Part shown: positions 39,121 through 62,924 of the stretch, one piece after another
Numbering within the stretch: position 1 is the stretch's first letter
Layout of the letters: every line of letters starts with the position of its first letter
Source of the DNA: Thermoanaerobaculia bacterium
Lineage (GTDB): Bacteria > Acidobacteriota > Thermoanaerobaculia > UBA5066 > DATFVB01
Assembly (NCBI GenBank): GCA_050747885.1
Contig: JBOGJO010000034.1
Location: 69-64,068, forward strand
Reading direction: 5' to 3'
Length of the DNA: 64,000 nt
The notes under the pieces: model-generated
Databases searched by the model: none
What the model was told of the DNA's origin: nothing
What the model saw: the letters and a program-made list of their open reading frames with translations, nothing else
Program-made: the position numbers and the translations under genes

Positions 39121-39633
39121 ATGCCTGCGAAAAAGGCGAAAAAGAAGACGAAAAAATCCGCGCCGAAAAGGGCCGCGCGCCGTCCGGTAAAACGCGCGGC
39201 AAAGAAAATACAGGCGAAACGCGCGCCGAAGAAGAAGTCCGGAGCGCTCGGTCTGACCGACGCGTCGCCGTCGTTCACCGTCGACGACCTCGAGAAGAGC
39301 ATGGCCTGGTACCGCGACGTCCTGGGGTTCTCGATCGACGAACGCTGGGAGCGGGACGGAAAGCTCATGGGCGTGTCGCTCCAGGCGGGCGGCGTGACGT
39401 GGATGATCGGCCAGGACGACTGGCAGAAGGGCCGCGACCGCCGGAAGGGCGTTGGATTCCGGATCTACTGCGGCATGAAGGGCGACGTCGACGCGTTCGC
39501 GGCGGCAATCAAGGCGCAGGGCGGCCTGCTCGACACCGAGCCGACTGACCAGCCCTGGGGAAGCCGCGACTTCTCGATCTCGGATCCGGACGGCTTCAAG
39601 ATCACGATCGGAAAAGAAACGCGCAAGCGCTGA
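39121..39633 (+). CDS. VOC (glyoxalase/bleomycin-resistance fold) protein with an N-terminal Lys/Ala-rich histone H1-like tail
   Basis: N-terminal about 45 aa PAKKAKKKTKKSAPKRAARRPVKRAAKKIQAKRAPKKK. Then a VOC domain (…FTVDDLEKSMAWYRDVLGF…, …DPDGFKITI…). Confidence 0.7.
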   Translation: MPAKKAKKKTKKSAPKRAARRPVKRAAKKIQAKRAPKKKSGALGLTDASPSFTVDDLEKSMAWYRDVLGFSIDERWERDGKLMGVSLQAGGVTWMIGQDDWQKGRDRRKGVGFRIYCGMKGDVDAFAAAIKAQGGLLDTEPTDQPWGSRDFSISDPDGFKITIGKETRKR

Positions 39634-39823: not shown

Positions 39824-39900
39824 GCGCCCGTAGCTCAACTGGATAGAGCATCAGACTTCGGATCTGAGGGTTGGGGGTTCGAATCCCTCCGGGCGCACCA
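39824..39900 (+). tRNA. tRNA-Arg (anticodon TCG)
   Basis: Manual fold: acceptor GCGCCCG/CGGGCGC, D-arm GCTC…GAGC, anticodon stem TCAGA/TCTGA with loop cTTCGga, T-arm GGGGG-TTCGAAT-CCCTC, 3' ACCA. Confidence 0.85.
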
Positions 39901-40464: not shown

Positions 40465-40935
40465 TCACTTTCGCCCCGTCGGCCTTGAGAGATGGGCGGC
40501 GCAATTGATGAACCCCGGCTCACGAATCGAGCCGCAAATCGGACACAGCCCGGCCTTTCGTCGTTTCGCCACCCGCTGTCTCGCGTAGGCGCGCTCTTGC
40601 TCGCGATGAAAACGGCAAAGCCGAGTTCCCGTCTTCACAGCTTTGCCGCACCTCTCGCAGCGCCCCGCCCTTGCGCGTTGGCGCTTCAGGGCACGGCTGA
40701 AGTCGCGCATTTCCTTGAGATGTCTCTTGCAGCAAACGTGAGGCTTAGAGGCTGGGCGGGCGCACTTGACGCACCGCCCGACTGCCTTCAGCTCTGATGT
40801 TCTGCGGCGCGAATGCTCGGCGCGCATTCTCCGGTGCTCGCCGCAGACCGACAGTCCGCGAAGACGCTTCTTCGTGCAGTGAGAGCACCGGTCAGAAAGC
40901 TTGCGTCGGTGGATCGCTTTGCGTCTGGAGGTCAT
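40465..40935 (-). CDS. Basic protein with four tandem C-x2-C-x9-11-C-x2-H zinc-finger-like repeats
   Basis: Repeats CSHC…CGEH, CVKC…CCKRH, CERCG…CRFH, CPICG…CAAH. Each is followed by an Arg/Lys-rich stretch. Codon usage is atypical for this genome. Confidence 0.6.
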   Translation of the reverse strand: MTSRRKAIHRRKLSDRCSHCTKKRLRGLSVCGEHRRMRAEHSRRRTSELKAVGRCVKCARPASKPHVCCKRHLKEMRDFSRALKRQRARAGRCERCGKAVKTGTRLCRFHREQERAYARQRVAKRRKAGLCPICGSIREPGFINCAAHLSRPTGRK

Positions 40936-40953
40936 GGCCTCTCGCACTCGCCG

Positions 40954-42063
40954 TCATCGCCTCTCTTCTATCGGGGGCGGCGCCAAGGGCTGAACCGGGC
41001 CGGAGATCGATGGTTCCACGTTCTGAGGAGGCGCGATCTCACTTGATCGTTCTGCTTCGGGGCGCAGCTTGCCGAGAAGAGAGGAGAAAGACTTCGCCGT
41101 GTCGTCGGAGCCAGCCGGAAACCTTCCGAGAAAGAACTGGATCTGGCTCTTTGAGGCCGTGGCCGGAATGACCACCACCCGGGCGGTGGCGAAGACTTTC
41201 GATAGACTCGCTCGATAGAGCCTCGCGCGGCCTGCCGCCGGGGAGCGAGCCACCTGGTCCGCAATCGCCAGAAAAGTCTGCCGTTCAGCCCGCGCCGCCT
41301 CGGTGATCTCCTTGTTCCGGCTTTCTGCCTGTCGGACGTCGGTCTCGGCCTGCGCGCGGGCAAGTGAAAGTGCTTGCGACGCTTTTCCCTGAGCCTCGCT
41401 CACCCGCCTTTCTCTCCAGGCGGCCGCGTCGGATACTGCGTTGAAGGCGCCCGCCGCCTCCGCGGGTGGGCTGACCGCCGCGAGGGAGACCTGAAGCAGA
41501 ACGATTCCCGTGCGTGTTTGCTCGGCTGCGGCCTGAGCGGCGCTTCGGACAGCTTCCTGCAGAGCGCTCTTTCCCGTGGTCAGCACTTCGTCGACCGGCA
41601 AAATGCTGATCTCGCGGGCCAGCGCGGCAATTGCGGAATCGAGCAGCACGCCGTTGGGGTCGTATTGCGCAGTACGAAACAGGCCGGCATCCTCGATCCG
41701 GTACTGCAACTGTCCGCTGATCTCGACGAGATTTTCGTCGCCGGTAATGAACTCCAGCGTTTCTGTCTCTCTTCTGTTTAAAGGAAGCGATCGCACCGCC
41801 CCGACCGCTACGACCTCGAATTCCTCCATCAGGGGAATAGCAAAGGTCGCCCCCGGCGACACTCGGCCGTCCACGAGCTTCCCGAGCCTTCGCCGGAGAC
41901 CCCGCTCGTCATTGCGGACCACCCGGATTCCCGAAGCCATGAGAACGAGAAGGGCGAGAAGAAGACTCGCGAGCGCGCCTATGCGTCGGCGCCGATACAG
42001 GGCGGCTGCGGCCGCCCGAATCCTGACGACGTGACGGGGCTGGGTCAATTCGGGTTCGTTCAT
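40954..42063 (-). CDS. SPFH/Band-7 family protein (HflK/HflC-like)
   Basis: N-terminal TM. SPFH core …LEFITGDENLVEISGQLQYRIEDAGLF…. Coiled-coil Ala/Glu-rich C-terminus. Start overlaps the upstream stop (ATGA). Confidence 0.8.
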   Translation of the reverse strand: MNEPELTQPRHVVRIRAAAAALYRRRRIGALASLLLALLVLMASGIRVVRNDERGLRRRLGKLVDGRVSPGATFAIPLMEEFEVVAVGAVRSLPLNRRETETLEFITGDENLVEISGQLQYRIEDAGLFRTAQYDPNGVLLDSAIAALAREISILPVDEVLTTGKSALQEAVRSAAQAAAEQTRTGIVLLQVSLAAVSPPAEAAGAFNAVSDAAAWRERRVSEAQGKASQALSLARAQAETDVRQAESRNKEITEAARAERQTFLAIADQVARSPAAGRARLYRASLSKVFATARVVVIPATASKSQIQFFLGRFPAGSDDTAKSFSSLLGKLRPEAERSSEIAPPQNVEPSISGPVQPLAPPPIEERR

Positions 42064-42956
42064 GGGTGATGGGCGCCCGTTCCCGGCCCCTCATTGAGCA
42101 CCTTCAGCATCGGACTCTTCGAGTCGAGAAAGATTGTGGTCTCGGCTCCGATCGACTTTTCGTACCCGTGCAGGGCTCGAAGAAACTCGTAGAGCCGCGG
42201 GTCGCGCCGATACGCCTCCCCGACGAGGCGCGTGGCTTCGGCCTCGCCCTGCCCCCGAAGAATCTCGGCGTCTCGCGCCGCTTCGGCCAGGAGTGTGCGT
42301 CGCCTCTCGTCGGCCTCGGCTTCGATCTTCTGACCCGCCTCTTCCCCTTCGGAGCGAAGGCGCAAGGCGATCCGGGCTCGCTCAGCGCGCATTCTCGCGA
42401 CGATCGCTTCCCGGTTCTGGCCCGGAAAATGGACCTGTGAAAGCCACGCCGCGTCTGCCTCAACGCCGAGACTCGCCCTCGCGAACGCGTCCACCCTCTG
42501 CCGGACTCGTTCGGTGAGCTCCGCCGTCCGAACGGTGCCCGGCTGGGTGGAGAAGAAAGCCTCCGATGGCATGCGCCCGGCGGCTGATCCGAGGGAGGAG
42601 ATCGCGAGATCGATCAACCGGGCTTCGGCACCGTCGACGTCCCGGACTCGTTGGAGGAAGAGAGCCGGGTCGGAGATTCGCCAGAGCAACGAAAGCTCCA
42701 GCACGAGGTTTTTCTTGTCGGATGTCAGGAACTCCGTCGGCGGAATCCGAAACAGTATCCGGCGGCGATCCAGCCGGAACACCGACCCGATCGGCCTCGG
42801 GAGAATCAGGTGCGGCCCCGGCGCGAGAGGGCCGGAGACGAGGCGCCCGAACCTCGTTGCGAGGGCGACCTCGGTTTCGTCGACAATGACCAGGGAGTCG
42901 AGCGCCAGTGCGACGATCGCCCCGACGAGCAGGAACGCGAGTGTCGTCTTTTTCAT
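42060..42956 (-). CDS. SPFH/Band-7 family protein (HflC-like)
   Basis: MKKTTLAFLLVGAIVALAL… (signal anchor). …FLTSDKKNLVLELSLLWRISDP…. ATGA overlaps at both ends. Confidence 0.8.
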   Translation of the reverse strand: MKKTTLAFLLVGAIVALALDSLVIVDETEVALATRFGRLVSGPLAPGPHLILPRPIGSVFRLDRRRILFRIPPTEFLTSDKKNLVLELSLLWRISDPALFLQRVRDVDGAEARLIDLAISSLGSAAGRMPSEAFFSTQPGTVRTAELTERVRQRVDAFARASLGVEADAAWLSQVHFPGQNREAIVARMRAERARIALRLRSEGEEAGQKIEAEADERRRTLLAEAARDAEILRGQGEAEATRLVGEAYRRDPRLYEFLRALHGYEKSIGAETTIFLDSKSPMLKVLNEGPGTGAHHP

Positions 42957-45247
42957 GGAGGTGCGGGTCCTTTCATGTCGGTCTTGGGGGCAGCCGGCGT
43001 GCCCCAGTCGAAGATTCTCGGCTCGACATTGGCGGGGAGGATGACCTTCGGCCGTCCGTGCAGCGCACGCTCGATCGTGTTCCACCAGAGACGGAGCCGT
43101 GAGGCTGCGAGCCGGCCTGCAGCGGCCGCCGCCTGGAGCTGGAAGGAATGCCCTTCTCCTTCGGCCCGCAGGATCGTCTCCGTGCGATCCGACCGGGCGG
43201 CGGCCAGCTCCGTGGACGCCTGAGCGCGAGCGAGAGGAAGCGCGGAGTCGAGCTTTCCGCGGGCCTCGAAGATCCTGCGTTCTTTCTCCTCTGCGGCGCT
43301 GCCGACATCCCGAAACGCTGCGACCGTCTCTTGCGGTGGATGGAAGTCCAGTATGTTGACCGCGCCAACCGAGAGCGGAATGCCACTGCGGTCAAGCTCT
43401 TCCTGAAGTCGAGCACGCGCGGTTTCTTCGAGCTCTCCCCGCTGCTCTGTCAAGGACGTGTCGATCCCGCGTGTCGCGAGAAGGCTCTTGACGACGCTCA
43501 AGAACGGCGGGCGGACCGCGTCGATACCGTCGCGGGTTCGAAATGCCAGCTGGTACGGGTCCCGTACCCTCAGGTGGAGCGCGGCTTTGATCTCGACCAG
43601 ATTCTGATCGCCTGCCACGAACGATGCTTCTCCGGGCATGTCGTCCGAGCTCGTGTAGATCGAGTGCCAGTATTCAGAAAAGGGATCCCAACGGATTCCC
43701 TGATAATCGGCGACCGGCTTCCCACGGAACCCCACATCGACCTTGAGAAGTTGCTCCGCCGGAACGACCCTGAAGGCGCCCAGCGGCGGCGGCAGCGCCC
43801 AGTGCCATCCCGCGGGGAGCGCGAATGGATTCGCACGGCCGAGAGTCTCTCGAATGGCGACCGAGCCCGGCGGGACACTGACGAATCCTCGCGCCATCCA
43901 TAGCAAGACCGCGACAGCGCCGCCGGCGCCGATCAGACGAACCTTGTTCGCGGTCTCGGCTCTGTGGAGGCCCGACTGAAGACCTCGCCGAGCGGTCTCG
44001 GGAACGAGACCTTGCACGGCTTCACGGATCTCCCGGCGTCCTTGCTGCCATCCCACACGAAGCAGTGACACGAAAAAGACAATTCCAAAAAGGACGCCGA
44101 AGAGAATCTCCCAGCCCGAAACGTTCTCCGTCAACAGCGGCTGGCCGGTATATCCGGGCCCGGTCAATGAGCGGCGCAGCCCATGAAGAATCAGCCCGAA
44201 TGCCAGCGAAATCGAAAAGCACGAAATCAGGAGGGCCCGAATATATTTTCGGCCGAAATGCCGACGCAGGACGAGAAGGCTTGCTGGATTCGTGATGGGC
44301 CCGGTCAGGAAAATCACGAGCGCCGCGGCGGGGAAGAGGCCTTTGGCGACAAGGACGGCCGCCAGCGGGATCGTCCCGGAGGCACACACGTTCAGGGGGA
44401 TGGCGATGAGCGCCGCGAAGACGAACTGGCCGAACAGTCCCCCGGGAATTCGGGACGCAAAATCCTGCGGCAGAAGCGAGGCGAGAAAACCGGATAGCAG
44501 AAACCCGAAGAGGAGCGGCCAGGCTATCGCGTCGAGGAGCTCTCCGAAGCCATAGAGTGAGACTTCTCGAAGGGCTCGGGCCGCCTTCACAAGGAGCGGG
44601 CTCGCGGTCGCCGGCCTCTTATTGGCGCCCGGCGCTTCGCGCTCCACCGCAACGTCCGAAATAGCGACCGGCTGCGGTCGCGCCCGGAAGGCTACCCATT
44701 TGCGGCGAATGAGGTGTAGCCAAAGATTCATGCGCCGCCATCCGCGCGGCAACTTCCGCCGGGAGTCGAGACCCGGCGTCATTGCATCCGCCGTCGCGCT
44801 CGGCGCATCAGGAGGTCCCCAGGCTGCCGAGGCGATAACAAGAACCGCGCCGAGAATCGCCGCGCACAACCCGGCAACGACCCTGGCGATGGCGAAGCCC
44901 CAACCAAAGAGACCCGCTGTGAGAAAGACCGCATCCGGGCTGTCTTCCGGCGTCGAGACCAGGAACGCAGCCACACTCTCGGGCGTGGCGCCCTGCTTTC
45001 TGAGCTCGAGCGCGACCGGGAGAGTGCCGCAGGAGCAGATGGGAAGCGCTACCCCCGTCATGAGCCCGGCTCGAACGGATCGCAAACCTGGCGAGGATAA
45101 GCTTCGCCGAATTCGTCTCCTTCCGCTGACGAACCGGTGGAAGAAACCTGCGACGATGAGGCCGGCAAGCAGGTAGCCGCTGCTTCTCGCGAAAAGTTGA
45201 AGCGAGAGCGAAAGCGTCTGCTCGACGAGGCCCAGAAAGCCGCTCAC
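42953..45247 (-). CDS. Fusion protein: COG0701/DUF318-type permease (ArsP/SO_0444-like, CSCG motif) plus a C-terminal SPFH (HflK-like) domain
   Basis: N-terminal about 330 aa polytopic region with the GVALPICSCGTLPVALEL motif. C-terminal …FVAGDQNLVEIKAALHLRVRDPYQLAF… SPFH domain and coiled coil. Confidence 0.7.
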   Translation of the reverse strand: MSGFLGLVEQTLSLSLQLFARSSGYLLAGLIVAGFFHRFVSGRRRIRRSLSSPGLRSVRAGLMTGVALPICSCGTLPVALELRKQGATPESVAAFLVSTPEDSPDAVFLTAGLFGWGFAIARVVAGLCAAILGAVLVIASAAWGPPDAPSATADAMTPGLDSRRKLPRGWRRMNLWLHLIRRKWVAFRARPQPVAISDVAVEREAPGANKRPATASPLLVKAARALREVSLYGFGELLDAIAWPLLFGFLLSGFLASLLPQDFASRIPGGLFGQFVFAALIAIPLNVCASGTIPLAAVLVAKGLFPAAALVIFLTGPITNPASLLVLRRHFGRKYIRALLISCFSISLAFGLILHGLRRSLTGPGYTGQPLLTENVSGWEILFGVLFGIVFFVSLLRVGWQQGRREIREAVQGLVPETARRGLQSGLHRAETANKVRLIGAGGAVAVLLWMARGFVSVPPGSVAIRETLGRANPFALPAGWHWALPPPLGAFRVVPAEQLLKVDVGFRGKPVADYQGIRWDPFSEYWHSIYTSSDDMPGEASFVAGDQNLVEIKAALHLRVRDPYQLAFRTRDGIDAVRPPFLSVVKSLLATRGIDTSLTEQRGELEETARARLQEELDRSGIPLSVGAVNILDFHPPQETVAAFRDVGSAAEEKERRIFEARGKLDSALPLARAQASTELAAARSDRTETILRAEGEGHSFQLQAAAAAGRLAASRLRLWWNTIERALHGRPKVILPANVEPRIFDWGTPAAPKTDMKGPAPP

Positions 45248-45283: not shown

Positions 45284-47716
45284 TCAGAACGTGTACTTCA
45301 CTCTCGCCGCCAGCGTCCTCGGCGGAATCACGTGCGTTCCGCCGAAGGTCGAGAGCACGTTGTAGACACCTTTCTTATCGAAGGCGTTGAGTAAGTCGAC
45401 CTGCAACGAGACGGGAACTCCGTAGCGCGTTAGATCGGCCCCGGCAGAGAAATTCCAGATCGTGCGGGGCTTGATCCGGTTTGGATCGAGGTTCGTGTTC
45501 GACGTGAAGTTGATGTATGGGTACGCGAAGGCGTTGTCCGGGTCCTGCAGGATCGTTTGGTCCGCCCCGGTGACGAGCCCGGAATCGTAACGGGCCATCG
45601 CCGCCGCCCAGAACCCGGACGATCCAAAGGCATAGTTCAACCCGCCCTGAATTTGGAGTTTCTCGTCGTGGTCGATGACGAAGGGCCCCCCGTTGACGGC
45701 GTCGAGCGCGCCCGAGTCCAGGAAGAGGCCGCCAGCCAGCGGCGGCACGTAGATGGCGCGCGTGTGGCCGACCGAAAGGTACCCTCGAAAGCCATCGATG
45801 GGAGCCGAGTCCAGGCGCACGTTCCACCCGTGGAGTTTTCCTTGCGAAAACGCCAGCGGAAAGACGATCCCCGTGTTCTGGAACTGGTCCTGGTCACCCG
45901 CAAATTTCGAGTCGCGCCGCCAAAAATCGACATCCAGGCGGACATAGGGGCCGACTTGCTGCTGGAGTCCCAGGTCATACGCGTCCTGCCGCTCCGACGG
46001 GACGAAGAGGAGACCGTCGCCGAGCGCTCTCGACTGCTGCACGTCCGGCGGGGCCAGCGCCGCGGCCTCTTCCGAGGAGGAGAAGAGGATGTTCTCGTAC
46101 TCCGGTGTCTCGAAGATCCGGTTGTACGAGGCTCGAAAGACGGACTTCGTTTGGGAAATGAAGTAGCTCACACCGACTCTCGGCTCGAGCTGGGATTCTT
46201 TCAGTGGAAAGCTATTATGGTCATAGCGCAGTCCGATCTGTGCCGTGAGATTTCCGAGCCGGATCGTGTCCTCCGCGAATCCGGCCAGGTAAGTGACCGT
46301 CTTGGATTGTTCGAACCGGAAGACTGCGCCCCCTCGCGTGAGGTCATAAGGCGCGAGATTGGGATTGTAATCGGGCGACGAGGGATCGTTGAGGTTCGGG
46401 TCGGTGATCCCAAAGGAGAACCGCTCTTGAATGGGATAGCTCTTCAAGATGGCTCCGAACTTGAGCTCGTTCGCGTTGCCCACCTGAATCGAGAGTGTCG
46501 GCTGGACGCCGTAGTTATCGAGCGACCGCTTGGAGCTCGTGATGACCGACGGGTCGTTGGGCGAACCGCGGTACGTGAACCGGTTGTTCCGGGCGAAAAG
46601 CGTCGTGTCGAGCACGGTCGTCGAGCCGAAGACGTGTTGCCATCCGAGGTTCGCGTTCCAGTCGGTCGTCTCGACGGTGTTGTCCGTATCCGCGGCCTGC
46701 TGTGTGAGCGTGTTCGTCACATCCCGATTGGTCCTCCCGATGAGTCCCGAAAGTCGGAAGCTGTCGCCGCCGCCTGGCGTCGTTCTGTCGAGGCGTAGGA
46801 AGGCCCGTTCGGTGTCGCCGTGGTTGTGAAAATTGTCAAAGTTGACGGGATCGAGGAACCGATCGGATTTCGAGCCGTCCACGGACCCGAAGTACCCGAG
46901 GGTATCGGAGCCCCCTCCCACCGAGGCCCCGGCGTCGTAGGTGCCAAACTTCGCGCCGCCCGCGTGGACGTCCCCGTGCGGGCCGCCGGTTCCGAGGCCC
47001 GATTTCGTCGTCAGATTGATGACCGCTGCAATCTTCTCGCCGTATTCGGCCGGCACGTTCCCGTAGATGACCTCCGCGGACTGAAGAATGCCGGGGTCGA
47101 TCGAGTTCGAAAACGTCGTGCCGATCTGGTCCGTGATCGGCTGGCCGTCGACGACGTAGCTCTGCTGGCTGTGCGCGCCCTGAAAGTGGTAGCGCCCGTT
47201 CTCGTCGGCGGAGAAACCGGGCGCCTGGATGACAAGCGCTTCCATGCCGCGCGACGGAGTCGCCGCAGGTGCGTGCTCGATGAACGACTTGTCTATGTCG
47301 ACGTGCGATTGCGACGAATCGGTCTCAAGGACCGCCGCCGGCTTCTCCGCCTCCACCTTCACCGTTGCTGTCACCGATTCGAGAGCGAGGGTCACGGGCT
47401 GATCGATCGGCGCGGTGCTCCGCACGTCGATTGCGAGGTGTTGCGTCGCGAAGCCCTGCACCTCGACGTGGAGTTCGTAGGGGTTGAACGGAACGTTGAA
47501 GAATGAGTATTTCCCGTCCGCTTCCGTTACGGCCTGCGCCTTGAACCCGGTGATGTCGTTGCGAAGGACGAGCGGAACGCCCCCCATCGGTTTCCCGTCG
47601 GGTCCGGTTACCGTCCCGCGAATCGAACCGGCGGCAAGCGCCGCGAGACAGTTGTTCCTACCCAGGACAAGCGAGACGGACAAAGTCAAAATCGATATCA
47701 GGATGCGATTTCTCAC
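45284..47716 (-). CDS. TonB-dependent outer-membrane receptor with N-terminal CarboxypepD_reg-like domain
   Basis: GTG start after GGGAGGAAA. Signal peptide. …GTVTGPDGKPMGGVPLVL…TEADGKYSF… is a CarbopepD_reg fold. Plug and 22-strand-barrel length (810 aa). C-terminal …KYTF. Confidence 0.85.
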   Translation of the reverse strand: MRNRILISILTLSVSLVLGRNNCLAALAAGSIRGTVTGPDGKPMGGVPLVLRNDITGFKAQAVTEADGKYSFFNVPFNPYELHVEVQGFATQHLAIDVRSTAPIDQPVTLALESVTATVKVEAEKPAAVLETDSSQSHVDIDKSFIEHAPAATPSRGMEALVIQAPGFSADENGRYHFQGAHSQQSYVVDGQPITDQIGTTFSNSIDPGILQSAEVIYGNVPAEYGEKIAAVINLTTKSGLGTGGPHGDVHAGGAKFGTYDAGASVGGGSDTLGYFGSVDGSKSDRFLDPVNFDNFHNHGDTERAFLRLDRTTPGGGDSFRLSGLIGRTNRDVTNTLTQQAADTDNTVETTDWNANLGWQHVFGSTTVLDTTLFARNNRFTYRGSPNDPSVITSSKRSLDNYGVQPTLSIQVGNANELKFGAILKSYPIQERFSFGITDPNLNDPSSPDYNPNLAPYDLTRGGAVFRFEQSKTVTYLAGFAEDTIRLGNLTAQIGLRYDHNSFPLKESQLEPRVGVSYFISQTKSVFRASYNRIFETPEYENILFSSSEEAAALAPPDVQQSRALGDGLLFVPSERQDAYDLGLQQQVGPYVRLDVDFWRRDSKFAGDQDQFQNTGIVFPLAFSQGKLHGWNVRLDSAPIDGFRGYLSVGHTRAIYVPPLAGGLFLDSGALDAVNGGPFVIDHDEKLQIQGGLNYAFGSSGFWAAAMARYDSGLVTGADQTILQDPDNAFAYPYINFTSNTNLDPNRIKPRTIWNFSAGADLTRYGVPVSLQVDLLNAFDKKGVYNVLSTFGGTHVIPPRTLAARVKYTF

Positions 47717-47798: not shown

Positions 47799-48209
47799 TC
47801 AGATGAGGGAGGGAGGACCGCGGGCAAGAGATTCGGAACGGAATCCAGAGAGTTGAGGACGATCCTGGGCGGCGCGAACAGCTTCAACTGTTGCGAGAAA
47901 GATCCGCGCGGGGGGTTGAACTTGAATGCCGGTGAGGTGCTGACGCAGACAGGCGAGGCAGGGTTCGACTTCGACGATCAGGTCCGGGTGCCAGTGGGAA
48001 GCCGTCGGGTTGGCGCAGGAGATCTCGTGAACCTCGCGGACCGTGTTCGAGTCGTCAAAAAGCCATTCCGCCGTCAGCGAGCTTGAGTGATGATGGGTCG
48101 CCGTTGCGACGACCACCTGGGAGAGCAAGACAAGAAGCGTGATCCCAAACCGGAGAGAGGTTCGCGTATTTCGGCAGGCTTCACGCCGGCTCACACGGTT
48201 GGTGGTCAT
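47799..48209 (-). CDS. Small secreted His/Cys-rich protein (possible periplasmic metal-binding protein, DUF2946-like)
   Basis: Start MTTNRVS…. TM/signal segment LRFGITLLVLLSQVVVATA followed by THHHSS and CLACL. Lies directly upstream of the TonB-dependent receptor. Confidence 0.4.
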   Translation of the reverse strand: MTTNRVSRREACRNTRTSLRFGITLLVLLSQVVVATATHHHSSSLTAEWLFDDSNTVREVHEISCANPTASHWHPDLIVEVEPCLACLRQHLTGIQVQPPARIFLATVEAVRAAQDRPQLSGFRSESLARGPPSLI

Positions 48210-48438
48210 TCCACCGGAGGATACCACTCCCGGGACGGCGATTCTCTGTGTCCACATGCGTTTTTGCGTCGTCGCTCTCGATCCGATCAGACCGAGGACC
48301 CAGAATAGGCCTACGACGGCCCGGTCGTGACTTACGGCACGATGATGATGCCGGGGCCCTTGACCACCGAGCAGTTGCTTCCGCCGTTGTCGCAGAGGGA
48401 AGCCGTGTCGTCGTACGGCTTGCCGCTACTCGCGTCCT

Positions 48439-50144: not shown

Positions 50145-52796
50145 TCAATGGGGCTCTTCCTTCCCCCTCGTCAGGGCGATCGCGAACCTCTTGTCGGCCC
50201 GGAGGCCGGCAAATTCCGGGTCTTTTTCCACGAGCGCCGGGGGGTATCCTGATTGTACCGCCTTGCCGAGCTCGTCGAAGGCCGCCGGAAGGTCGTGGGC
50301 GATCACGTAAACCACGGAAGCCTGGTAATCGACGTCGGGGTCGCCGCGCCCGGCCTGCGAGGCCCGCCGGATTTCCGCGAGAGCCTCGGTCGGTTTGCCG
50401 GTTTTTGCGAGCGAACTGGCGAGGATCGAGCGGACGAGCCCGTCGCCCGGGTTGCGCTCGAGCTCCTTGCGGCACAGTTCGAGAGCGCGTGAATAGGCCC
50501 GCCGGGAGCCCTCCTGCCGCCCCGGTGTCCAGCGGAGGGCGTCTCCCAGGTTCGACCAGACCCGGTAGAGGTCGGGCGTGAGCTTCGTGGCTTCCTCGAA
50601 AGCGGCCGCCGACTGGGCGTAGTTCCCGAGAAAGAACTCGACGGTCCCGATGTTGGACTGGGCGAAGCCCGTGGGCTGAAGCGCCAGGGAGCGCCGGAAC
50701 GCTGCGAGAGCCTTCTCGAGATCGTTGGCGAGGAAGTACGCCCCGCCGAGGTTGGAGAGGGCCATCGCGTTGTCCGGCGTCAGCTCGGTCACGCGGCGGA
50801 ACGCCGCGGCGGCCTCTTCATATCGGCCCCGGGCGTAGTAGAACCCCGCGAGCTTGCTGTAACCGCCCCAGTACGTGGGCTGGAGATTGAGCGCCTCCCG
50901 GAACGCCTTTTCCGCGTCCGCGTCCCTGCCGGCGGCTCCCAGGGCTCGCGCCAACCCGAGCCTCGCCTCGAAGCTCGTCGGCGACGCGGCGAGCGCCTGT
51001 TGAAACGCCTCGACCGCGCCCGCGGCGCCCCCGGAATGGAGCCGGAGCTCGCCCAGCGTGATGTCCACTTCGATCAGCGACGGCCCCAGCTCGCGCGCGC
51101 GCCGCGCGGCGGTTTCCGCCTTCGAGGTATCTCCGGAATCGTGCGTCAGGTCGAAATGCTCGAGATATGCCCGGGCGAGCGAGGCAAACACGTAAGGCGA
51201 TCGCGGCGCCTCCTGCGACAGGGTTTCCAGGATGGCCGTGGCATTTTCGACCGACTCGCGGGTGTTGTAGTGCTGGAGAAGGCCGACCGCCTTCAAGTAG
51301 CGTTCCTGGTCCGTCCCGGAGGGCAGGCCCGACGCGGCGGAGACCCGTCGAACGGCCGGAATCGATTCCGCTTCGCTCACCTTCGCAACGAGGCGGTCCT
51401 GAAGCTCGAACAGGTCGGACGCGGAGCCGTCGAGCGTGCCGCCCGAGAGCTCCGCTCTCTTGCGCACGTCCCACAGCGAATACGTGATCCGCACCCGATC
51501 CCGGCTTCTCTGCACGGCGCCCTGGAGGAGCTGCGACGCGCCGAGGTCGCGGGCTGCGTTGAGCGGATCCGGCTCCTTCGCGGAAGCGGCAATGACCGCC
51601 GCGGGCGACACGACCTGGAGCCCGGTCGACCCCCCGATGGCCGAAGACACCGTCTCGACGAGGCCCTCGCCGAGAAGTTTTCCGTCCGGCGCGCTCGAGA
51701 GGTCGCGAAACGGCAAAATCGCCAGCAGCCTCGCGGGAGGGATCGCGGAGGCCGTCGGGGGCGCGGGCGAGGAGGCCGGCGGCTCCGCCTTTCGACGCGG
51801 GCGAAGAGTGATCACCAGCGCCGCCCCGGCGACCAGCGCCGCCGCCGCGCCGGCGGCGATCTTCGCGGATTTGGATAAGCGCCGCGGCGCCGGCAGGGGA
51901 ATCACGCTCCGGGACGTCGGACGGCGCGGGTCGATCTCCAGAAGCAGCTCTTCGATCGCGAGGCGCGCGTCGCCGATGTCGCGCAACCGCTGCGCGGGAT
52001 CTTTTTGAAGGCAGCGCGCGAGCATTTCGCGCAGAGCGGGAGGCGTTTCGGGGGGAAGCAAATCCCATTCCGGCTCCGACCGAAGGATCGCGGCAAAAGC
52101 GTCCGGCACGGAGTCTCCCGTGAAGGCGCGACGTCCCGAGAGACACTCGAAAACGATGCACCCGAAGGCCCAGATGTCGGTGCGCTTGTCGATGGCCTTG
52201 CCCCGGGCCTGTTCGGGGCTCATGAATTCGATCGTGCCGAGAATCACGCCGGGGCGAGTTTCGTCGAGGGCCGCCGTTGTTTCGCGGGAGAGGCCGCCCA
52301 CGACTTCCGAACGAAGGCCTCCCGCGATCTTGGCCAGGCCGAGGTCGAGGATCTTCGCGCGGCCGTCGGGCGTGACCATGACGTTGGCGGGCTTGAGATC
52401 GCGGTGAACGATTCCGCGCTCGTGGGCCGCTTCGAGGGCCTCGGCGATCTGGCGGGCGATCCGCAGGGTCTCCCGCATCGACAGCGGGCCGCGGAGATGG
52501 TCGGAGAGAGTCTTTCCCTCGACGAGCTCGAGGATGAGGTATCTCTGATCGCCGGCCTCTTCGGCGCCGTAGATGGCGGCGATGCCGGGATGGTTGACGG
52601 AAGCCAGGAGGCGGGCCTCCCGTTCGAAGCGGGAAATCCGCGACGCGTCGCGGCCGGACGACTCGGGGAGCACCTTGATGGCCACCTCGCGCCCGAGTTT
52701 CGTGTCGATCGCCCGGTAAACCTCGCCCATGCCTCCGGCCCCGAGAAGGTTTCGGATCTCGTAGGAGCCGAGTCGGGTGCCTGGTTCTAGTTCCAC
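50145..52796 (-). CDS. Ser/Thr protein kinase with TM segment and C-terminal TPR repeats
   Basis: …LGAGGMGEVYRA…AIK…, HRDLKPANVMV, DLGLAK. Mid-protein TM. Multiple TPR-like repeats in the C-terminal half. Confidence 0.85.
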   Translation of the reverse strand: MELEPGTRLGSYEIRNLLGAGGMGEVYRAIDTKLGREVAIKVLPESSGRDASRISRFEREARLLASVNHPGIAAIYGAEEAGDQRYLILELVEGKTLSDHLRGPLSMRETLRIARQIAEALEAAHERGIVHRDLKPANVMVTPDGRAKILDLGLAKIAGGLRSEVVGGLSRETTAALDETRPGVILGTIEFMSPEQARGKAIDKRTDIWAFGCIVFECLSGRRAFTGDSVPDAFAAILRSEPEWDLLPPETPPALREMLARCLQKDPAQRLRDIGDARLAIEELLLEIDPRRPTSRSVIPLPAPRRLSKSAKIAAGAAAALVAGAALVITLRPRRKAEPPASSPAPPTASAIPPARLLAILPFRDLSSAPDGKLLGEGLVETVSSAIGGSTGLQVVSPAAVIAASAKEPDPLNAARDLGASQLLQGAVQRSRDRVRITYSLWDVRKRAELSGGTLDGSASDLFELQDRLVAKVSEAESIPAVRRVSAASGLPSGTDQERYLKAVGLLQHYNTRESVENATAILETLSQEAPRSPYVFASLARAYLEHFDLTHDSGDTSKAETAARRARELGPSLIEVDITLGELRLHSGGAAGAVEAFQQALAASPTSFEARLGLARALGAAGRDADAEKAFREALNLQPTYWGGYSKLAGFYYARGRYEEAAAAFRRVTELTPDNAMALSNLGGAYFLANDLEKALAAFRRSLALQPTGFAQSNIGTVEFFLGNYAQSAAAFEEATKLTPDLYRVWSNLGDALRWTPGRQEGSRRAYSRALELCRKELERNPGDGLVRSILASSLAKTGKPTEALAEIRRASQAGRGDPDVDYQASVVYVIAHDLPAAFDELGKAVQSGYPPALVEKDPEFAGLRADKRFAIALTRGKEEPH

Positions 52797-53748: not shown

Positions 53749-55479
53749 CTAAGGCGCTCCGGCCGACGACGGGCCGGGGAAACCGGCGGTCGTGGGCACC
53801 GGCGGCGGGCTCGGGGACCGCGCGAGGGAGAGGGCGTAGTAAACGAGGGCCCAGCGCCTTTCCTCGGCGACCGCGTTCTTTTCGAGGTCGCTCATCTTCG
53901 AGAGAACGTCGGAGGTGGGAAGTGTTGCGACGTAGGTCTGGATCTCCTGGATCTCCGGATCCGAAAATGCCGGCTTTCCGCCGATGAGCTGCCGGTAAGG
54001 ACCCATGTCGGTGTAGGCCTCTTTCGGATACAGGATCGAGTCGTAGAAAGAAGGCATCGGGGTGCCGTTGAGCCCCGTGTTGAAGGTCCGGTACACGTCC
54101 TGCGGAGAGTTGCCGAACTTGAAGTTTCCAGTCGTGAAGTCGAAAGGACGAATCGGGACTTCCCAATCGTCGGCGAGGGCGGCGGCCGACGGTCCGTCCC
54201 CCTTGCCGGTCATTCCGTGGCAGCTCCAGCATTGGAGAACCCGGAAGACCATTCGGCCTTCGTTCAGCACGGCGGCCGGCGCTTCTTTGGGAGACGGGTA
54301 CGGCGGCACCGGAATCGTGATCGACGGGGGCACGGGCTCGGTTTTGAAGCGGTCCGAGAACGTCTTCACGTAATCGACCAGGTCCCAGCGGTCCTGCTCC
54401 GGCAGGAAATGTCCGTCCTGCATGTTGCCCCAGGCCGGCATGATCTGGCCCTTCCGGACGCCCCGGGTGATCGTGCGGAAGATGTCCTCGTCGCGGGGAA
54501 GCGCCCCCGACGGCGTCGTACGGCTCTTGAACACGCCGAAGGTGAAGTTTCGAGGTTGGGGGTTGAGAAAATGGTACGCGTCGTTGAAGTTCGTGGAGGA
54601 GTTTGCATCGGCGGTGAGCCGCCCGTTTCCGTAAGCCCCGTGGCACCCGACGCACTTCTTTTCGAAGATCGCCTTTCCGCGCGACACGCGCAGGTCGAGG
54701 GCCTCGGTCGGAGTCGGCCGCGAGTTCGTCGGCCACGGCTCCCAGATCCGCCAGTCGCCGATCGCGGTGCCGATCTTCTGAAGATACGCTTCGACGGCGA
54801 TCATCTCGCCCGTCGGGCGCGGCCCGTAGTCGTGCATGTCGATGATGCCGTCGCCCCGGGTTCCGTCTGCGTTGAGCGGCCAGACATCGAGGTCTTTCCA
54901 GTTCGGGGGGAGCTCGTCCGGAGTTACGCTTCCGTCGCCGTTCTTGTCGAGCTCGGTCTTGGTCACCCGGCCGTCGTGGTTCTTGTCGTTCTTCGCGATG
55001 AATTCGCGGACCACTTTGTCACGGGCCGGATCGTCCGCGTAGAGCCATTGAAACGACGGCATGATCGATTCGGGCTCGACGGCGCGGGGGTTCCAGTGGT
55101 GCGCGTAATGCCATTCGTCGGACCGGCGATTGCCCTCGCGCGAGAGCTCGGGGCCGATGCGCCTCGTGCCGAACATCTGGGGAAGGTCGTATGCGATTTC
55201 ACCGGCCTGAGAGACGGGTCCCCACTTGTCGGTGTCGCGGTTGACCGGCCGGATGTACTGAGAGTGGCAGTACCAGCAGCCCTCACGGATGTAAACCTTC
55301 CGGCCCGACTCCTCGAGAGCCGTCCGGTGGGGCGAAGGAATCGTGGTTCCCTCGATGGTGCGGACGATGCCGGGGCGGGTCGTTTTCTTCTCGAGCCACG
55401 GCAGGACGCCCTGGCTGGTCATCGCGAGCGCGTAGAACCCGACGGCGGCGATGAGGATGATCGGCTCGATGCGTTTCAT
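53749..55479 (-). CDS. ccoO: Fusion of the cbb3 oxidase mono-heme subunit CcoO with a diheme cytochrome c (CcoP-like), with two internal EF-hand-like Ca-binding loops
   Basis: CcoO part …CWYCHSQYIRP…MPSF…. Linker DKNHDGRVTKTE and DKNGDGSVTPDE. Two further heme motifs CVGCHGAYGNG and CWSCHGMTGKG. Paralogous to the protein at 57064-57825. Confidence 0.8.
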   Translation of the reverse strand: MKRIEPIILIAAVGFYALAMTSQGVLPWLEKKTTRPGIVRTIEGTTIPSPHRTALEESGRKVYIREGCWYCHSQYIRPVNRDTDKWGPVSQAGEIAYDLPQMFGTRRIGPELSREGNRRSDEWHYAHHWNPRAVEPESIMPSFQWLYADDPARDKVVREFIAKNDKNHDGRVTKTELDKNGDGSVTPDELPPNWKDLDVWPLNADGTRGDGIIDMHDYGPRPTGEMIAVEAYLQKIGTAIGDWRIWEPWPTNSRPTPTEALDLRVSRGKAIFEKKCVGCHGAYGNGRLTADANSSTNFNDAYHFLNPQPRNFTFGVFKSRTTPSGALPRDEDIFRTITRGVRKGQIMPAWGNMQDGHFLPEQDRWDLVDYVKTFSDRFKTEPVPPSITIPVPPYPSPKEAPAAVLNEGRMVFRVLQCWSCHGMTGKGDGPSAAALADDWEVPIRPFDFTTGNFKFGNSPQDVYRTFNTGLNGTPMPSFYDSILYPKEAYTDMGPYRQLIGGKPAFSDPEIQEIQTYVATLPTSDVLSKMSDLEKNAVAEERRWALVYYALSLARSPSPPPVPTTAGFPGPSSAGAP

Positions 55480-55482
55480 GGC

Positions 55483-56886
55483 TCAGCTCCACTGCGGTTC
55501 GGGCGCGGCGGCGGCCGAACGGGACAACGCCGGCCCGGAAACGGCGGTCTTGTAGAAGTTCCACATCCCGAGGATCGCGCCGATGTCCATCGTCACCCCC
55601 GCGAGCGTTCGTGTGAACCAGTACGGCTTCATGGCGACCATGGAGTCCACGAAATCCGCGCCGGTCTGGAGCATCTCGCCCTGCATCAGTCCTTGCAGGG
55701 TGAGAACTCCCGCCATCACGGAAAAGCCGCCGATGGTGAGCCAGTAGTGCCATTGAGCGAGCTTTCGGGAATAGAGCTCCCGGCCGGACAACCTCGGGAT
55801 CACGTAATAAAGGCCCGCCGTGATCCAGAGAATGAACGTGCCGAACACCGTGAGGTGGGAGTGCGCGATGACGAAGTCGGTGAAATGCGTCAGCCGCTGA
55901 ACTTCCCGAAGCGCCTCGGTGGAGCCCTGGAAGCAGCCGAGCAGGTAAAAGAGCGCGCCGACGATCAGGAATTTAGCCGTGTACGATTCCTGGAACCGCT
56001 TCCAGTTTCCGACCATCGTTCCGTAGAAATTCTGGATCACCGTCCAGACCGGAATGATGAGCATCATGGAAGCGACGATCGCGATCGTCTGGGTCCAGTA
56101 CGGGATCGGGCTGTAGATGTAATGGTGGGTCCCGACGAAAGGGTAGAAGAACGCGAGCGACCAGAATCCGATGAGCGAGAGGCGGTGGCTGTACAGCGGC
56201 TGACGCGCGGCAAGCGGAAGAAAATAGTAGATCACCGCGAGTCCGGCCGGAGTGATCCAGAGCCCCACGACGTAGTGGATGTAGAGACCGTGCATCGCGG
56301 CGTTGTTCACGCCCGCGAAGTGGAACGGCAGCAGGAAATGCCCGAACGCGTAATTGAACGTCGTCCAGACGAAGGCGGCCGTGAGGTACCAGAGGGTCAC
56401 GTAGATCAGTTTTTCCTTCCGGTGGATGATCGTCATGATGATCTGGATCGTGATCAGCAGGAAAACGAGCTCGACGAGGATGTTGGCCCAGGTGGGAAAT
56501 TCGCCCGCTTCGATTCCAAGGTTCGAGCCGAGCGGCAGTGAAATCAGAGCCGCCGTAAAGCCCAAATTCCAGACCCAGAAGATCGCTCGGCTCCAGTTTT
56601 CCTTGTACATCCTCACGCCGCACAGGCGCGGAACCATGTAATACGTCAGGCCGAAGATCGTCGTCGTGAACGCCCCGAAAACGACGCCCATGACGTGGAC
56701 CGGCCGGAGCCGGCCCCACGTCAGCCAGGAAATGCCCCCGAGGAAGTCATAGAAGTTGAACTTGATCGAGAGGATGACGCCGATCGTGGGCGCGAAGACG
56801 AGCCAGAAAGCGCCCGACAGGAGGAACTGGAGAACGACCGTCCGATCGACGAGGTCGTCCGCTGGACGTTCCGCGATGCTGCTCAT
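55483..56886 (-). CDS. ccoN: cbb3-type cytochrome c oxidase subunit I
   Basis: 467 aa. 12 TM. Heme-copper oxidase His ligands (…FVIAHSHLTVFG…, …VGTHHYIY…). AGAGGAGGA Shine-Dalgarno sequence. Confidence 0.9.
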   Translation of the reverse strand: MSSIAERPADDLVDRTVVLQFLLSGAFWLVFAPTIGVILSIKFNFYDFLGGISWLTWGRLRPVHVMGVVFGAFTTTIFGLTYYMVPRLCGVRMYKENWSRAIFWVWNLGFTAALISLPLGSNLGIEAGEFPTWANILVELVFLLITIQIIMTIIHRKEKLIYVTLWYLTAAFVWTTFNYAFGHFLLPFHFAGVNNAAMHGLYIHYVVGLWITPAGLAVIYYFLPLAARQPLYSHRLSLIGFWSLAFFYPFVGTHHYIYSPIPYWTQTIAIVASMMLIIPVWTVIQNFYGTMVGNWKRFQESYTAKFLIVGALFYLLGCFQGSTEALREVQRLTHFTDFVIAHSHLTVFGTFILWITAGLYYVIPRLSGRELYSRKLAQWHYWLTIGGFSVMAGVLTLQGLMQGEMLQTGADFVDSMVAMKPYWFTRTLAGVTMDIGAILGMWNFYKTAVSGPALSRSAAAAPEPQWS

Positions 56887-57063: not shown

Positions 57064-57825
57064 CTAGGGGCCCTGTTCCGGCGTCCGCCGCGGGCCCGGC
57101 GGGCCGAGGCTCAGGACGTAGTGCGCAAGGTCCCAGGCTTCATCCTTGTTGATCGAGTCGGCGTACGACGGCATCGGAGTGCCCGACAGGCCGGTGATGA
57201 AGACGCGGTAGATGTCGGCCGCGGTGTCGCCGCACTTGATGTGTCCCTCGGTGAGGTTGTAGGGCACGATCGGATTGCCCCAATCGTCCTTGAGCTCGTG
57301 GGCGGACGGACCGTCGCCCTGCCCCTTGTCGCCATGGCACTGGACGCACTGATACTTCACAAACAGCGCGCGGCCGCGTTGGATGGACTCGGGATTGTCG
57401 GCGGGCTCGGCAGGAATCGTGATCGAGGGCTGCGGTTTTTCCTTCGTCCACCGATCGGAAAACGTCTTGATGTAGGAGATCACGTCCATGCGCGCGCGGT
57501 GGCCGATGGCGAACCACGTGGGCATGGCCGTGCCGTAGAGGCCGCCTTTGAGCGTCTTTTCGAGGTCCGCGTCGGTCGGCAGCGAGCCCGAGGGAGTCGA
57601 GCGCCATTTGAACGTTCCCTCCCGGTAGTCGCGCGGTTTCGGCGTGATCCACTCGGCGTACTCGCCCTGGCCGTTGCCCGCGTCGCCGTGGCAGGACAGG
57701 CAGTAGCGCTCGTAGACGAGTTTTCCGCGGGCAGGGCTTCCGGGCTCCTCCGCCCGGAGGGCGAGAGCCCCCGTCAGAAGGGCCCCGATCCCCAGAACAG
57801 CGATTCTTTGAACGAAGCGGTTCAT
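57064..57825 (-). CDS. Periplasmic diheme c-type cytochrome (Cyc1/CcoP-like)
   Basis: Signal peptide. CLSCHGDAGNG and CVQCHGDKGQG. GAGGAGG Shine-Dalgarno sequence. Confidence 0.8.
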   Translation of the reverse strand: MNRFVQRIAVLGIGALLTGALALRAEEPGSPARGKLVYERYCLSCHGDAGNGQGEYAEWITPKPRDYREGTFKWRSTPSGSLPTDADLEKTLKGGLYGTAMPTWFAIGHRARMDVISYIKTFSDRWTKEKPQPSITIPAEPADNPESIQRGRALFVKYQCVQCHGDKGQGDGPSAHELKDDWGNPIVPYNLTEGHIKCGDTAADIYRVFITGLSGTPMPSYADSINKDEAWDLAHYVLSLGPPGPRRTPEQGP

Positions 57826-62852: not shown

Positions 62853-62924
62853 CCCGATCGCGATGATACTTCGCCGAGCCTGGAGGCCCGGCCGCCGGGC
62901 CGTGGAGAAGATAGAATCTCTCCC

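Follow-up and report, generated by a model that had tools for sequence, protein, structure and literature searches.

A 64,000-nucleotide stretch of DNA from a metagenome-assembled genome of a Thermoanaerobaculia bacterium (contig JBOGJO010000034.1; called the window in what follows) encodes, in three overlapping genes, a conserved three-subunit system of the HflK/HflC type, the first subunit of which is covalently joined to a thiolate-lined metal permease. The products of genes 1, 2 and 3 are referred to as K1, C and K2. Proteins of the SPFH group (stomatin, prohibitin, flotillin, HflK/C) build membrane cages; their effect on the proteins that they hold is debated, and it is usually difficult to identify their clients. 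In the K1 gene the client is encoded in the gene itself, as a metal transporter fused to a cage subunit. The reading that we favour, and to which we would give a probability of roughly 0.45, is that the module forms an SPFH cage facing the periplasm, to which a soft-metal transporter, probably a zinc transporter, is tethered, and that the whole acts in zinc economy. A preliminary description of this DNA had taken the permease–SPFH fusion to suggest a scaffolded transporter microdomain, which may be so; its structural statements were all upheld by the present analysis, and its interpretation, though supported, proved too narrow, as the locus belongs to a modular family that is widespread and linked to zinc homeostasis.

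The two ATGA stop/start overlaps reported in the preliminary description, along with all of its coordinates, agreed with the open reading frame (ORF) table and with the sequence itself. The middle ORF in its longest form runs from 43085, and the ATG at 42956 gives the 298-amino-acid (aa) product beginning MKKTTLAF. The N-terminal part of K1 matched Pfam ArsP_1 (PF03773) over aa 22–355 (E 2.9e-35; 122.3 bits against a cut-off of 32.3), with profile positions 16–293 of 294 covered, and it carries the motif PICSCGTLP at aa 69–77 (LPICSCGTLP, aa 68–77) in the first permease half. The DUF318/ArsP_1 permease that had been recognized by this motif is thus upheld by Pfam, by NCBIfam and by its invariant cysteines. 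The permease is predicted to consist of two homologous halves with a cytoplasmic loop rich in lysine and arginine (K/R-rich; aa 142–240) between them. Positions that are invariant across an alignment of 118 fusion proteins are C71, C73, P77, P100, R122, C288, G303, G316 and P486, and many fusion proteins have an additional CxC in the cytoplasmic loop. The best NCBIfam family for the permease was the SO_0444 Cu/Zn efflux family (NF033936) at 214.3 bits, below the equivalog cut-off of 300, so that by score it is related to this family but not an equivalog. When the K1 model was searched against the PDB with Foldseek, the permease half matched no structure significantly.

The permease had earlier been described as either organo-arsenical or Cu/Zn in type. 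The SO_0444 match speaks for the second of these and the first found no support, no ars gene being found among those neighbours that were family-scanned or had precomputed Pfam matches. An organo-arsenical (ArsP-type) exporter that happens to carry an SPFH fusion would account for the Pfam family name ArsP_1 and for the presence of the cysteine-pair motif, but with SO_0444 and not ArsP as the best family match, no ars neighbours, and cation transporters in the sister modules described below, we regard this explanation as very improbable.

The C-terminal part of K1 matched Band_7 (PF01145) at aa 457–664 (E 8.4e-16), and Band_7 is the sole Pfam domain of both gene 2 (E 1.8e-23) and gene 3 (E 1.1e-15). 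In the PDB, the best sequence match was Escherichia coli HflK (7vhp_E) for aa 536–737 of K1 and for K2 (8e-21), and HflC (7vhp_G, 4.7e-31) for C. None reached the NCBIfam equivalog cut-offs: K1 scored 97 and K2 130 bits with hflK (TIGR01933; cut-off 159.4), and C scored 122 bits with hflC (TIGR01932; cut-off 134.4). An AlphaFold2 model of K1, built from an 11-sequence alignment, has a membrane domain made up wholly of helices and an SPFH domain rich in beta structure, followed by one helix of 70 residues and then another; its best Foldseek matches were the HflK chains 7vhq_E and 9cz2_XA, and the SPFH–client structures 8z5g and 9zd2 were also among its fold matches. A Band-7 domain with a coiled coil in product 1, HflK-like by PDB match, model and Foldseek, and stand-alone HflC-like (gene 2) and HflK-like (gene 3) proteins had all been proposed before and were found here.

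From hydropathy and the distribution of charge, K1 has a K/R-rich loop past its first transmembrane (TM) segment, then the central loop already mentioned, and an extra TM segment at aa 381–399. The linker that follows (aa 400–437) contains eight lysine and arginine residues and leads into a hydrophobic segment at aa 438–456, with model helices at 400–414, 417–432 and 435–452 around it. C has a TM segment at aa 7–25 directly following MKK, and in K2 a K/R-rich N-terminus precedes a TM segment at aa 28–46. The K/R-rich segments ahead of the anchors in K1, C and K2 agree with a predicted N-in, SPFH-out topology, in which all three SPFH domains would face the periplasm, as in HflK/C. A motif of the form VH[AP]P..VH, a possible periplasmic metal site, was considered as a defining feature of K1 and set aside: it is common, is not universal and is absent from one clade of the cation diffusion facilitator (CDF) type introduced below. 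The clade of the window has an insertion of about 40 residues in its SPFH domain (K1 aa ~509–549; window 43601–43723), in which W527, H528, Y531 and T532 are near-invariant in close relatives and which was modelled with low confidence.

One explanation for the likeness to HflK and HflC is that the cage recruits or restrains FtsH, itself a zinc-dependent protease, and that the tethered transporter is a conditionally degraded client whose abundance tracks metal status. Each of the three SPFH proteins is closest to HflK or HflC of E. coli, which modulate FtsH, and HflK/C cages are known to enclose FtsH (PDB 7vhp, 7wi3, 9cz2). However, no FtsH-like ORF occurred in any of the approximately 170 loci of relatives that were fetched for comparison (labelled L001, L004 and so on), although in E. 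coli, too, ftsH and hflKC are not linked; none of the three proteins reaches the HflK/HflC equivalog cut-offs, and the K1 SPFH domains form clades apart from canonical HflK. We consider that FtsH is a quite unlikely explanation of the module.

The fusion is conserved well beyond the window. A word-indexed homologue search returned 10 further proteins with ArsP_1 and Band_7, at 26–64% identity; word-indexed searches (protein, alignment) reached 11 fusion proteins in all, and the size of the family was seen by an exhaustive search of 1.84 billion representatives, which gave 400 matches at E≤1e-30. Among 168 proteins retrieved, at least 131 distinct ones have ArsP_1 and Band_7 in one chain, and the fusion is kept at 24–65% identity in well over 100 proteins. 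Species representatives with full-length fusions belong to the Thermoanaerobaculia, Holophagales and other Acidobacteriota, Myxococcota, Burkholderiales, Tectimicrobiota, Eiseniibacteriota and Planctomycetota, and include the cultured Bradyrhizobium erythrophlei GAS478. Wherever enough downstream sequence was available (17/17 loci), an HflC-type gene comes next after the fusion gene, with an HflK-type gene behind it, an order also seen in fused-type metagenome loci; 4-nucleotide overlaps are common. With overlaps, K1-C-K2 order occurs in Acidobacteriota, Myxococcota, Alpha- and Betaproteobacteria, Planctomycetota and Tectimicrobiota, at least six phyla being represented. The conserved unit is the three-gene K1-C-K2 module. 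Nothing was found in favour of the idea that the fusion is an assembly or frameshift artefact joining two genes, a danger that the preliminary description had named together with an N-terminus other than DUF318. The N-terminus matches ArsP_1, and the same continuous ORF is present in at least 131 proteins from independent assemblies, in a cultured Bradyrhizobium and on megabase-scale contigs; conservation refutes the artefact, to which we assign a negligible probability.

A database entry identical to K1 (100%) is named only 'MAG: permease [Thermoanaerobaculia bacterium]', and members of the family are called merely 'permease', 'HflK' or 'HflC' by current pipelines, so that annotation does not reveal the family. 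In a neighbour-joining tree of 79 sequences, which is coarse and in which K2 placements are unstable, the SPFH domain of the window K1 groups with those of other fused K1 proteins and apart from canonical HflK, and each transporter type (see below) makes up essentially one group of K1 SPFH domains. Seven loci (L098, L100, L108, L109, L127, L128 and L138) have pairs of a stand-alone K1-like and an HflC-like gene without K2; these share the motif FRDVASA.ED and branch basal to the fused K1 clades, nearer canonical HflK. These pairs could be the ancestral unfused form or else the canonical HflKC of their phyla.

The position of the fused transporter is filled by one of three unrelated metal-transporter families. 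A metagenome scan seeded with the K1 SPFH segment alone gave 80 loci, in which many K1 genes had lengths that did not fit a permease fusion, being either too great or too small: proteins of ~1000 aa combined the Pfam domains E1-E2_ATPase, Hydrolase and Band_7, and proteins of 520–800 aa combined Cation_efflux and Band_7. Typing with Pfam and local hidden Markov models (HMMs) of the 92 loci with a K1-type gene assigned 47 to permease fusions, 14 to CDF fusions, 8 to P1B-ATPase fusions and 8 to stand-alone K1, with 14 cut by a contig end and a single N-terminus (L111) left unassigned. The last was considered as a fourth kind of N-terminal module and rejected; it is an over-extended ORF without TM segments, and hence a stand-alone K1. 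In all fused types C and then K2 follow wherever the contig continues, and independent gene calls with precomputed Pfam matches confirmed both the ArsP_1+Band_7 and the Cation_efflux+Band_7 products. A CDF-type trio lies on an Aquibium oceanicum plasmid (L170, NZ_CP018172), annotated HflK, HflC, HflK; among PLSDB plasmids no permease-type fusion was found, and matches besides one CDF-type trio were canonical hflKC.

The CDF parts have HxxxD in both TM2 and TM5, a site type associated with zinc selectivity in the CDF/ZnT literature. The P1B parts are without heavy-metal-associated (HMA) domains and have His-rich N-termini and, in TM4, CPC or, unusually, CSC. CDF and P1B transporters end in the cytoplasm, so that all three types of fusion would place the SPFH domain outside. 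We regard the recurrence of three unrelated transporter families in the same K1 position as strong evidence for a selected function of metal-transporter caging. The P1B–K1 fusions with CSC in place of the canonical CPC are those of L113, L124 and L156; the tripeptide is the same as in the permease motif, and the last TM segment of these ATPases has an 'HQ..S' stretch that could not be matched to the standard P1B subgroups.

Across the family the commonest genomic partners are zinc-uptake genes. Markers of zinc uptake were scored by local HMMs in 46 non-redundant loci whose flanks span at least 7 kb, and at least one was present in 17 of them, including 13/30 permease-type and 3/4 P1B-type loci; for genes present once or twice per genome the chance expectation is about 1%, a rough estimate and not a computed value. 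ZnuA, ZnuC and ZnuB genes follow from the K2 stop, or within a few bases of it, in L007, L009, L012, L016 and L172, and the contig of L093 ends inside znuC after the module. ZnuABC lies upstream in L117, and ZnuA with ZnuB in L159. A ZIP gene overlaps the start of the fusion gene in two Planctomycetota loci (L017, L019), and ZIP genes are nearby in L001, L011, L139 and L156. L167 has a MacB-type ABC transporter and a DUF3299 gene upstream and a Fur-family gene followed by ZnuABC downstream, and in L168 the module is flanked by ZrgA, a second DUF3299 gene, CobW/COG0523 and ZnuABC. TonB receptors adjoin the module in 7 of the 46 loci. That the family works in zinc homeostasis, often in the same transcription unit as high-affinity uptake, is well supported by this association. 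Metal handling had been suggested for the window from the TonB-dependent receptor and His/Cys protein beside it; this is much strengthened by recurrence of the pair in the closest relative (L001), by the sister CDF and P1B modules and by the zinc-uptake partners.

Literature searches found no description of a permease–SPFH, CDF–SPFH or ATPase–SPFH fusion, the only related items being papers on Pseudomonas aeruginosa. The nearest described case is the PA2434–PA2439 cluster of that species, which likewise has three SPFH genes (annotated HflC-family, HflC and HflK-family) in one operon beside a metal transporter, the P-type ATPase HmtA (PMC4542158). Its RNA is raised in a znuA mutant or on zinc depletion, with a weak Zur site (PMC4542158), and HmtA, PA2438 and PA2439 protein increased in zinc-depleted cells while CzcCBA decreased (PMC11761036). 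This induction matches the zinc-uptake neighbourhoods of the K1-C-K2 family. In the P. aeruginosa cluster, however, the transporter is a separate gene and a P-type ATPase, whereas in the window an ArsP_1 permease is fused to the first SPFH subunit. PA2437, PA2438 and PA2439 were named PaFlo5-7 in a 2026 study, with a patchy distribution and only subtle deletion phenotypes; zinc limitation was not among the conditions in which the deletions were tested, and no link to zinc or HmtA was drawn (PMC13086221). We treat orthology of PA2437–2439 to K1-C-K2 as a lead from the literature, the comparison being made by published description only. The K1-C-K2 family suggests a candidate function for the zinc-starvation-induced HmtA and PA2437–2439, which are unexplained genes of the P. 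aeruginosa Zur regulon.

Among other known systems, E. coli HflK/HflC–FtsH provides the best sequence and fold matches of all three SPFH parts of the window, and resembles the module in its adjacent K-type and C-type genes, in the N-terminal anchor and long coiled coil of their products and in a periplasmic position of the SPFH domains, which for the module is predicted. HflK/HflC is a cage that holds a membrane-protein client; the module has two K-type subunits instead of one, a fused transporter instead of bound FtsH protease as client, no hfq–hflX context, and scores under the HflK and HflC cut-offs. SO_0444 and the ArsP exporters (ArsP_1, TC 2.A.119) share with K1 a full-length permease match and the cysteine-pair motif of the first half; K1 differs in its extra TM segment, linker and 300-aa SPFH extension and in the 214 bits that it scored against the cut-off of 300, and the neighbours of the fusion family are zinc-uptake genes, not ZntR or ars genes. 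Other pairs of an SPFH protein and a client (QmcA–YbbJ as SPFH–NfeD; stomatin with aquaporin-1 or ion channels) are alike in that SPFH rings bind and modulate membrane proteins, but their contacts are non-covalent and their rings homo-oligomeric, and the window module has no NfeD gene; none of this family was found among the Pfam matches of neighbours, in the window or in at least 20 annotated loci. An SPFH cage with a client is of a kind already known; new here is that the tether is covalent, that two subunits are K-type, that the metal transporters are interchangeable and that the context is one of zinc uptake.

We propose that K1, C and K2 would be subunits of one HflK/HflC-type SPFH ring or cage facing the periplasm, and infer that they assemble together, with the transporter enclosed by them or next to them. 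K1 would bring its own client, a permease path with C71-x-C73 and C288, joined through the cytoplasmic linker and the HflK-type membrane anchor, so that the transporter would be held at a membrane patch fenced by the cage and in fixed ratio to the cage subunits. The substrate is expected to be a soft metal, most likely Zn2+ and possibly copper. As the sister K1 positions carry a zinc-type CDF or a P1B ATPase, both from exporting families, the permease most likely exports, and by this analogy would move zinc (or copper) out of the cytoplasm and into the part of the periplasm that the cage encloses; confinement by the cage would then be the point of the arrangement. The presence of the module inside ZnuABC, ZIP or Zur-type operons elsewhere suggests that it belongs to a zinc-economy response, probably to zinc limitation, and would not be a stand-alone resistance pump. 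The metal handled at the window locus is less certain than that of the family, copper-related genes being nearby.

Several observations weigh against zinc economy as the role of the module. In the window itself no zinc-uptake (Znu, ZIP) gene, Fur-family gene or Zur-like palindrome was found, and its nearest metal genes are a cbb3 oxidase cluster and a CcoI-like ATPase, 8–19 kb away. The module of L001 lies amid CzcCBA, a P-type ATPase and an RcnR/CsoR-like repressor with an operator, and neighbours of this sort fit metal excess or copper as well as zinc. CDF-type loci had a zinc-uptake marker in only 1/9 cases, and the two annotated ones (L170, L173) are accompanied by a two-component system, an efflux ATPase and a periplasmic peptidyl-prolyl isomerase (PPIase). 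The confidence of the K1 model is only moderate (pLDDT 64.8), and import by HmtA has been reported (as cited in PMC4542158). Finally, an exporter that is co-expressed with importers looks futile unless the cage alters the outcome.

One alternative in keeping with some of these points is an ordinary Cu/Zn/Cd resistance efflux pump, induced by metal excess, whose SPFH partners merely stabilize or cluster it. SO_0444, the best NCBIfam match, is annotated as Cu/Zn efflux from fitness data, its founding member being required for growth under zinc or copper stress (PMC3219624); the L001 operon has as neighbours CzcCBA, a P-type ATPase and an RcnR/CsoR-like repressor whose operator is typical, CDF-type loci stand beside two-component systems and efflux ATPases, and all three fused families are classical exporters. 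However, 13/30 permease-type loci are tightly linked in operons to high-affinity uptake genes (ZnuABC, ZIP, a Fur-family gene, COG0523, ZrgA), zinc depletion induces the P. aeruginosa counterpart, which is not fused, in the same experiment in which CzcCBA falls (PMC11761036), and the SO_0444 score lies under its equivalog cut-off, so that a plain resistance pump appears unlikely to us.

Another possibility is that the permease imports zinc or copper from the periplasm, and that the cage collects or protects metal that has come in past the TonB receptor. Members of the NiCoT family are metal importers, and CDF transporters are established only as exporters from the cytoplasm. Between the ArsP and NiCoT families there is a distant relationship (PMC7176098), HmtA, which zinc depletion induces, was described as an importer (PMC4542158; PMC11761036), and co-transcription with uptake systems and TonB receptors would suit such a role. 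It is opposed by the CDF transporters in the equivalent position, by the behaviour of SO_0444 as an exporter (PMC3219624) and by the fact that P1B ATPases are generally exporters, the import claim for HmtA coming from heterologous expression. We hold inward transport to be rather improbable.

The module also raises for zinc biology the question of why exporter-type proteins should so often be encoded inside zinc-uptake operons. Three readings of this puzzle may be considered: the cage would retain exported metal for periplasmic use, the transporter would be a regulated client of FtsH, or transport would be inward as claimed for HmtA. In an elaboration of the first, which is speculative and on balance unlikely, K1-C-K2 would be a protein-walled periplasmic 'metalation chamber' into which lineage-dependent exporters pump zinc and which operates in zinc limitation; scarce metal might be kept beside the membrane and handed to exported proteins or chaperones, instead of being lost or recaptured by ZnuA. 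Whichever applies, the module offers a defined system for asking what confinement does, with a known client, a ratio fixed by fusion, and zinc or copper as read-out.

Table 1. Positions in the window of the module, its parts and the two genes upstream of it
Feature	Position	Strand	Description
Gene 1 (K1)	42953..45247	-	GTG start, 764 aa; ArsP_1/SO_0444-like permease + HflK-type SPFH subunit
Permease domain of K1, aa 1-400	44048..45247	-	From Pfam, hydropathy and charge bias, AlphaFold2 helices
C71-S72-C73 of PICSCGTLP	45029..45037	-	Both cysteines invariant in 118/118 aligned fusion proteins
C288 (NVCASGT)	44384..44386	-	Second permease half; third invariant cysteine, 118/118
Linker and anchor of K1	43880..44047	-	K/R-rich cytoplasmic linker aa 400-437; HflK-type anchor aa ~438-456
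Periplasmic SPFH domain of K1 (predicted location)	42956..43879	-	Coiled-coil helix aa 639-709, second helix 714-728, C-terminal tail
Stop/start overlap ATGA, gene 1/gene 2	42953..42956	-	CCTCCATGAAAAAG (CC-ATGA-AAAAG)
Gene 2 (C)	42060..42956	-	298 aa, HflC-type SPFH subunit, single N-terminal membrane anchor
Stop/start overlap ATGA, gene 2/gene 3	42060..42063	-	CACCCATGAACGAA (CC-ATGA-ACGAA)
Gene 3 (K2)	40954..42063	-	369 aa, second HflK-type SPFH subunit, unfused
TonB-dependent outer-membrane receptor	45284..47716	-	810 aa, CarboxypepD_reg at N-terminus
Small secreted His/Cys-rich protein	47799..48257	-	Probable start ATG at 48209

The window module is probably co-transcribed with the TonB receptor and the small His/Cys periplasmic protein (Table 1). 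The receptor gene ends 36 nucleotides upstream of the K1 gene; its product matched CarboxypepD_reg (Pfam, 8.6e-15) and TonB-siderophore (NCBIfam, 1.7e-10), with a weak Plug match (1.4e-4) at 22.8 bits, just below the 23.9-bit cut-off. The His/Cys gene, 82 nucleotides further upstream, is likely to be the first gene of the operon; its product reads as a signal-like hydrophobic stretch followed by HHH, HWH and CLAC motifs and had no Pfam or NCBIfam match. The same order of His/Cys protein, TonB receptor and fusion is found in L001, with a His/Cys homologue of 46% identity (E 7e-29) and a receptor homologue of 810 aa. In the window, no AT-rich palindrome was found upstream of the His/Cys gene, the receptor gene or K1, and no motif there was common to close relatives. 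In L001, an ORF at 6330–6620 (-) was read as an RcnR/CsoR-family repressor (H3, the cysteine in 'HDCGE', and H..H in 'DGHVRFH'), and an operator-like palindrome, TATACCCCAGGGGAGTATA, lies between it and the His/Cys–TonB receptor–fusion operon. An operator of this type was seen only in L001, and suggests, as read from the DNA, that the operon of this closest relative may be controlled by metal excess.

The next ORF beyond K2 in the window (40465–40947, -) starts 6 nucleotides past the K2 stop and encodes a very basic protein of 160 aa with four CxxC-x10-11-CxxH motifs at an even period of 38 aa, which could bind four zinc ions. Its G+C content at third codon positions (GC3) is 0.70, like that of the adjoining genes; it had no Pfam match and no homologue in any other fetched locus, and in L001 its position is taken by an HTH_3 protein. 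The cbb3 oxidase cluster and CcoI-like P-type ATPase (1041 aa) lie upstream of the module at 53749–56886, 57064–57825 and 60807–63932 (-), the cluster including CcoN, a FixO/cytochrome c fusion with EF-hand-like matches and a dihaem cytochrome c. In L006, cbb3 oxidase genes and a P-type ATPase are immediately upstream of the module.

Two further sets of neighbours recur in particular groups of loci. In both L170 and L173 a response regulator and a histidine kinase are encoded upstream of the module, and a periplasmic PPIase (SurA_N/Rotamase_2, PpiD-like) is encoded 3' of K2, directly in L173 and after about 0.5 kb in L170. Each of the two loci also has a heavy-metal P-type ATPase gene, which in L173 stands upstream of the two-component genes and in L170 downstream of the PPIase. 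A gene of the FmdA_AmdA family (acetamidase/formamidase-like) stands ahead of the fusion gene in L010, L011, L102, L115, L131, L134, L136, L139, L142, L163 and L166, all of them permease-type modules of a proteobacterial subgroup, with L010 from Bradyrhizobium, L011 from Burkholderiales and the rest from metagenome contigs. An extra HflC-like gene precedes the FmdA_AmdA gene in L010, L011, L131, L134, L136, L139 and L163, giving four SPFH genes per locus, and is present in this subgroup wherever the contig extends far enough upstream.

A large Ser/Thr kinase is encoded near the module in three loci (window 50145–52796, -; L167 13405–16233; the start of L004), those of the window and L167 also having tetratricopeptide (TPR) repeats; as such kinases are abundant in these phyla, the proximity may be due to chance. 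A membrane protein of 309 aa encoded upstream in the window and a protein of 309 aa encoded upstream in L004 were compared and are not homologous, their equal length being coincidental. The only tRNA gene of the window, a tRNA-Arg (anticodon TCG) at 39824–39900 (+), lies about 0.6 kb downstream of the operon, and a glyoxalase-family gene whose product has a Lys-rich N-terminus is found at 39121–39633.

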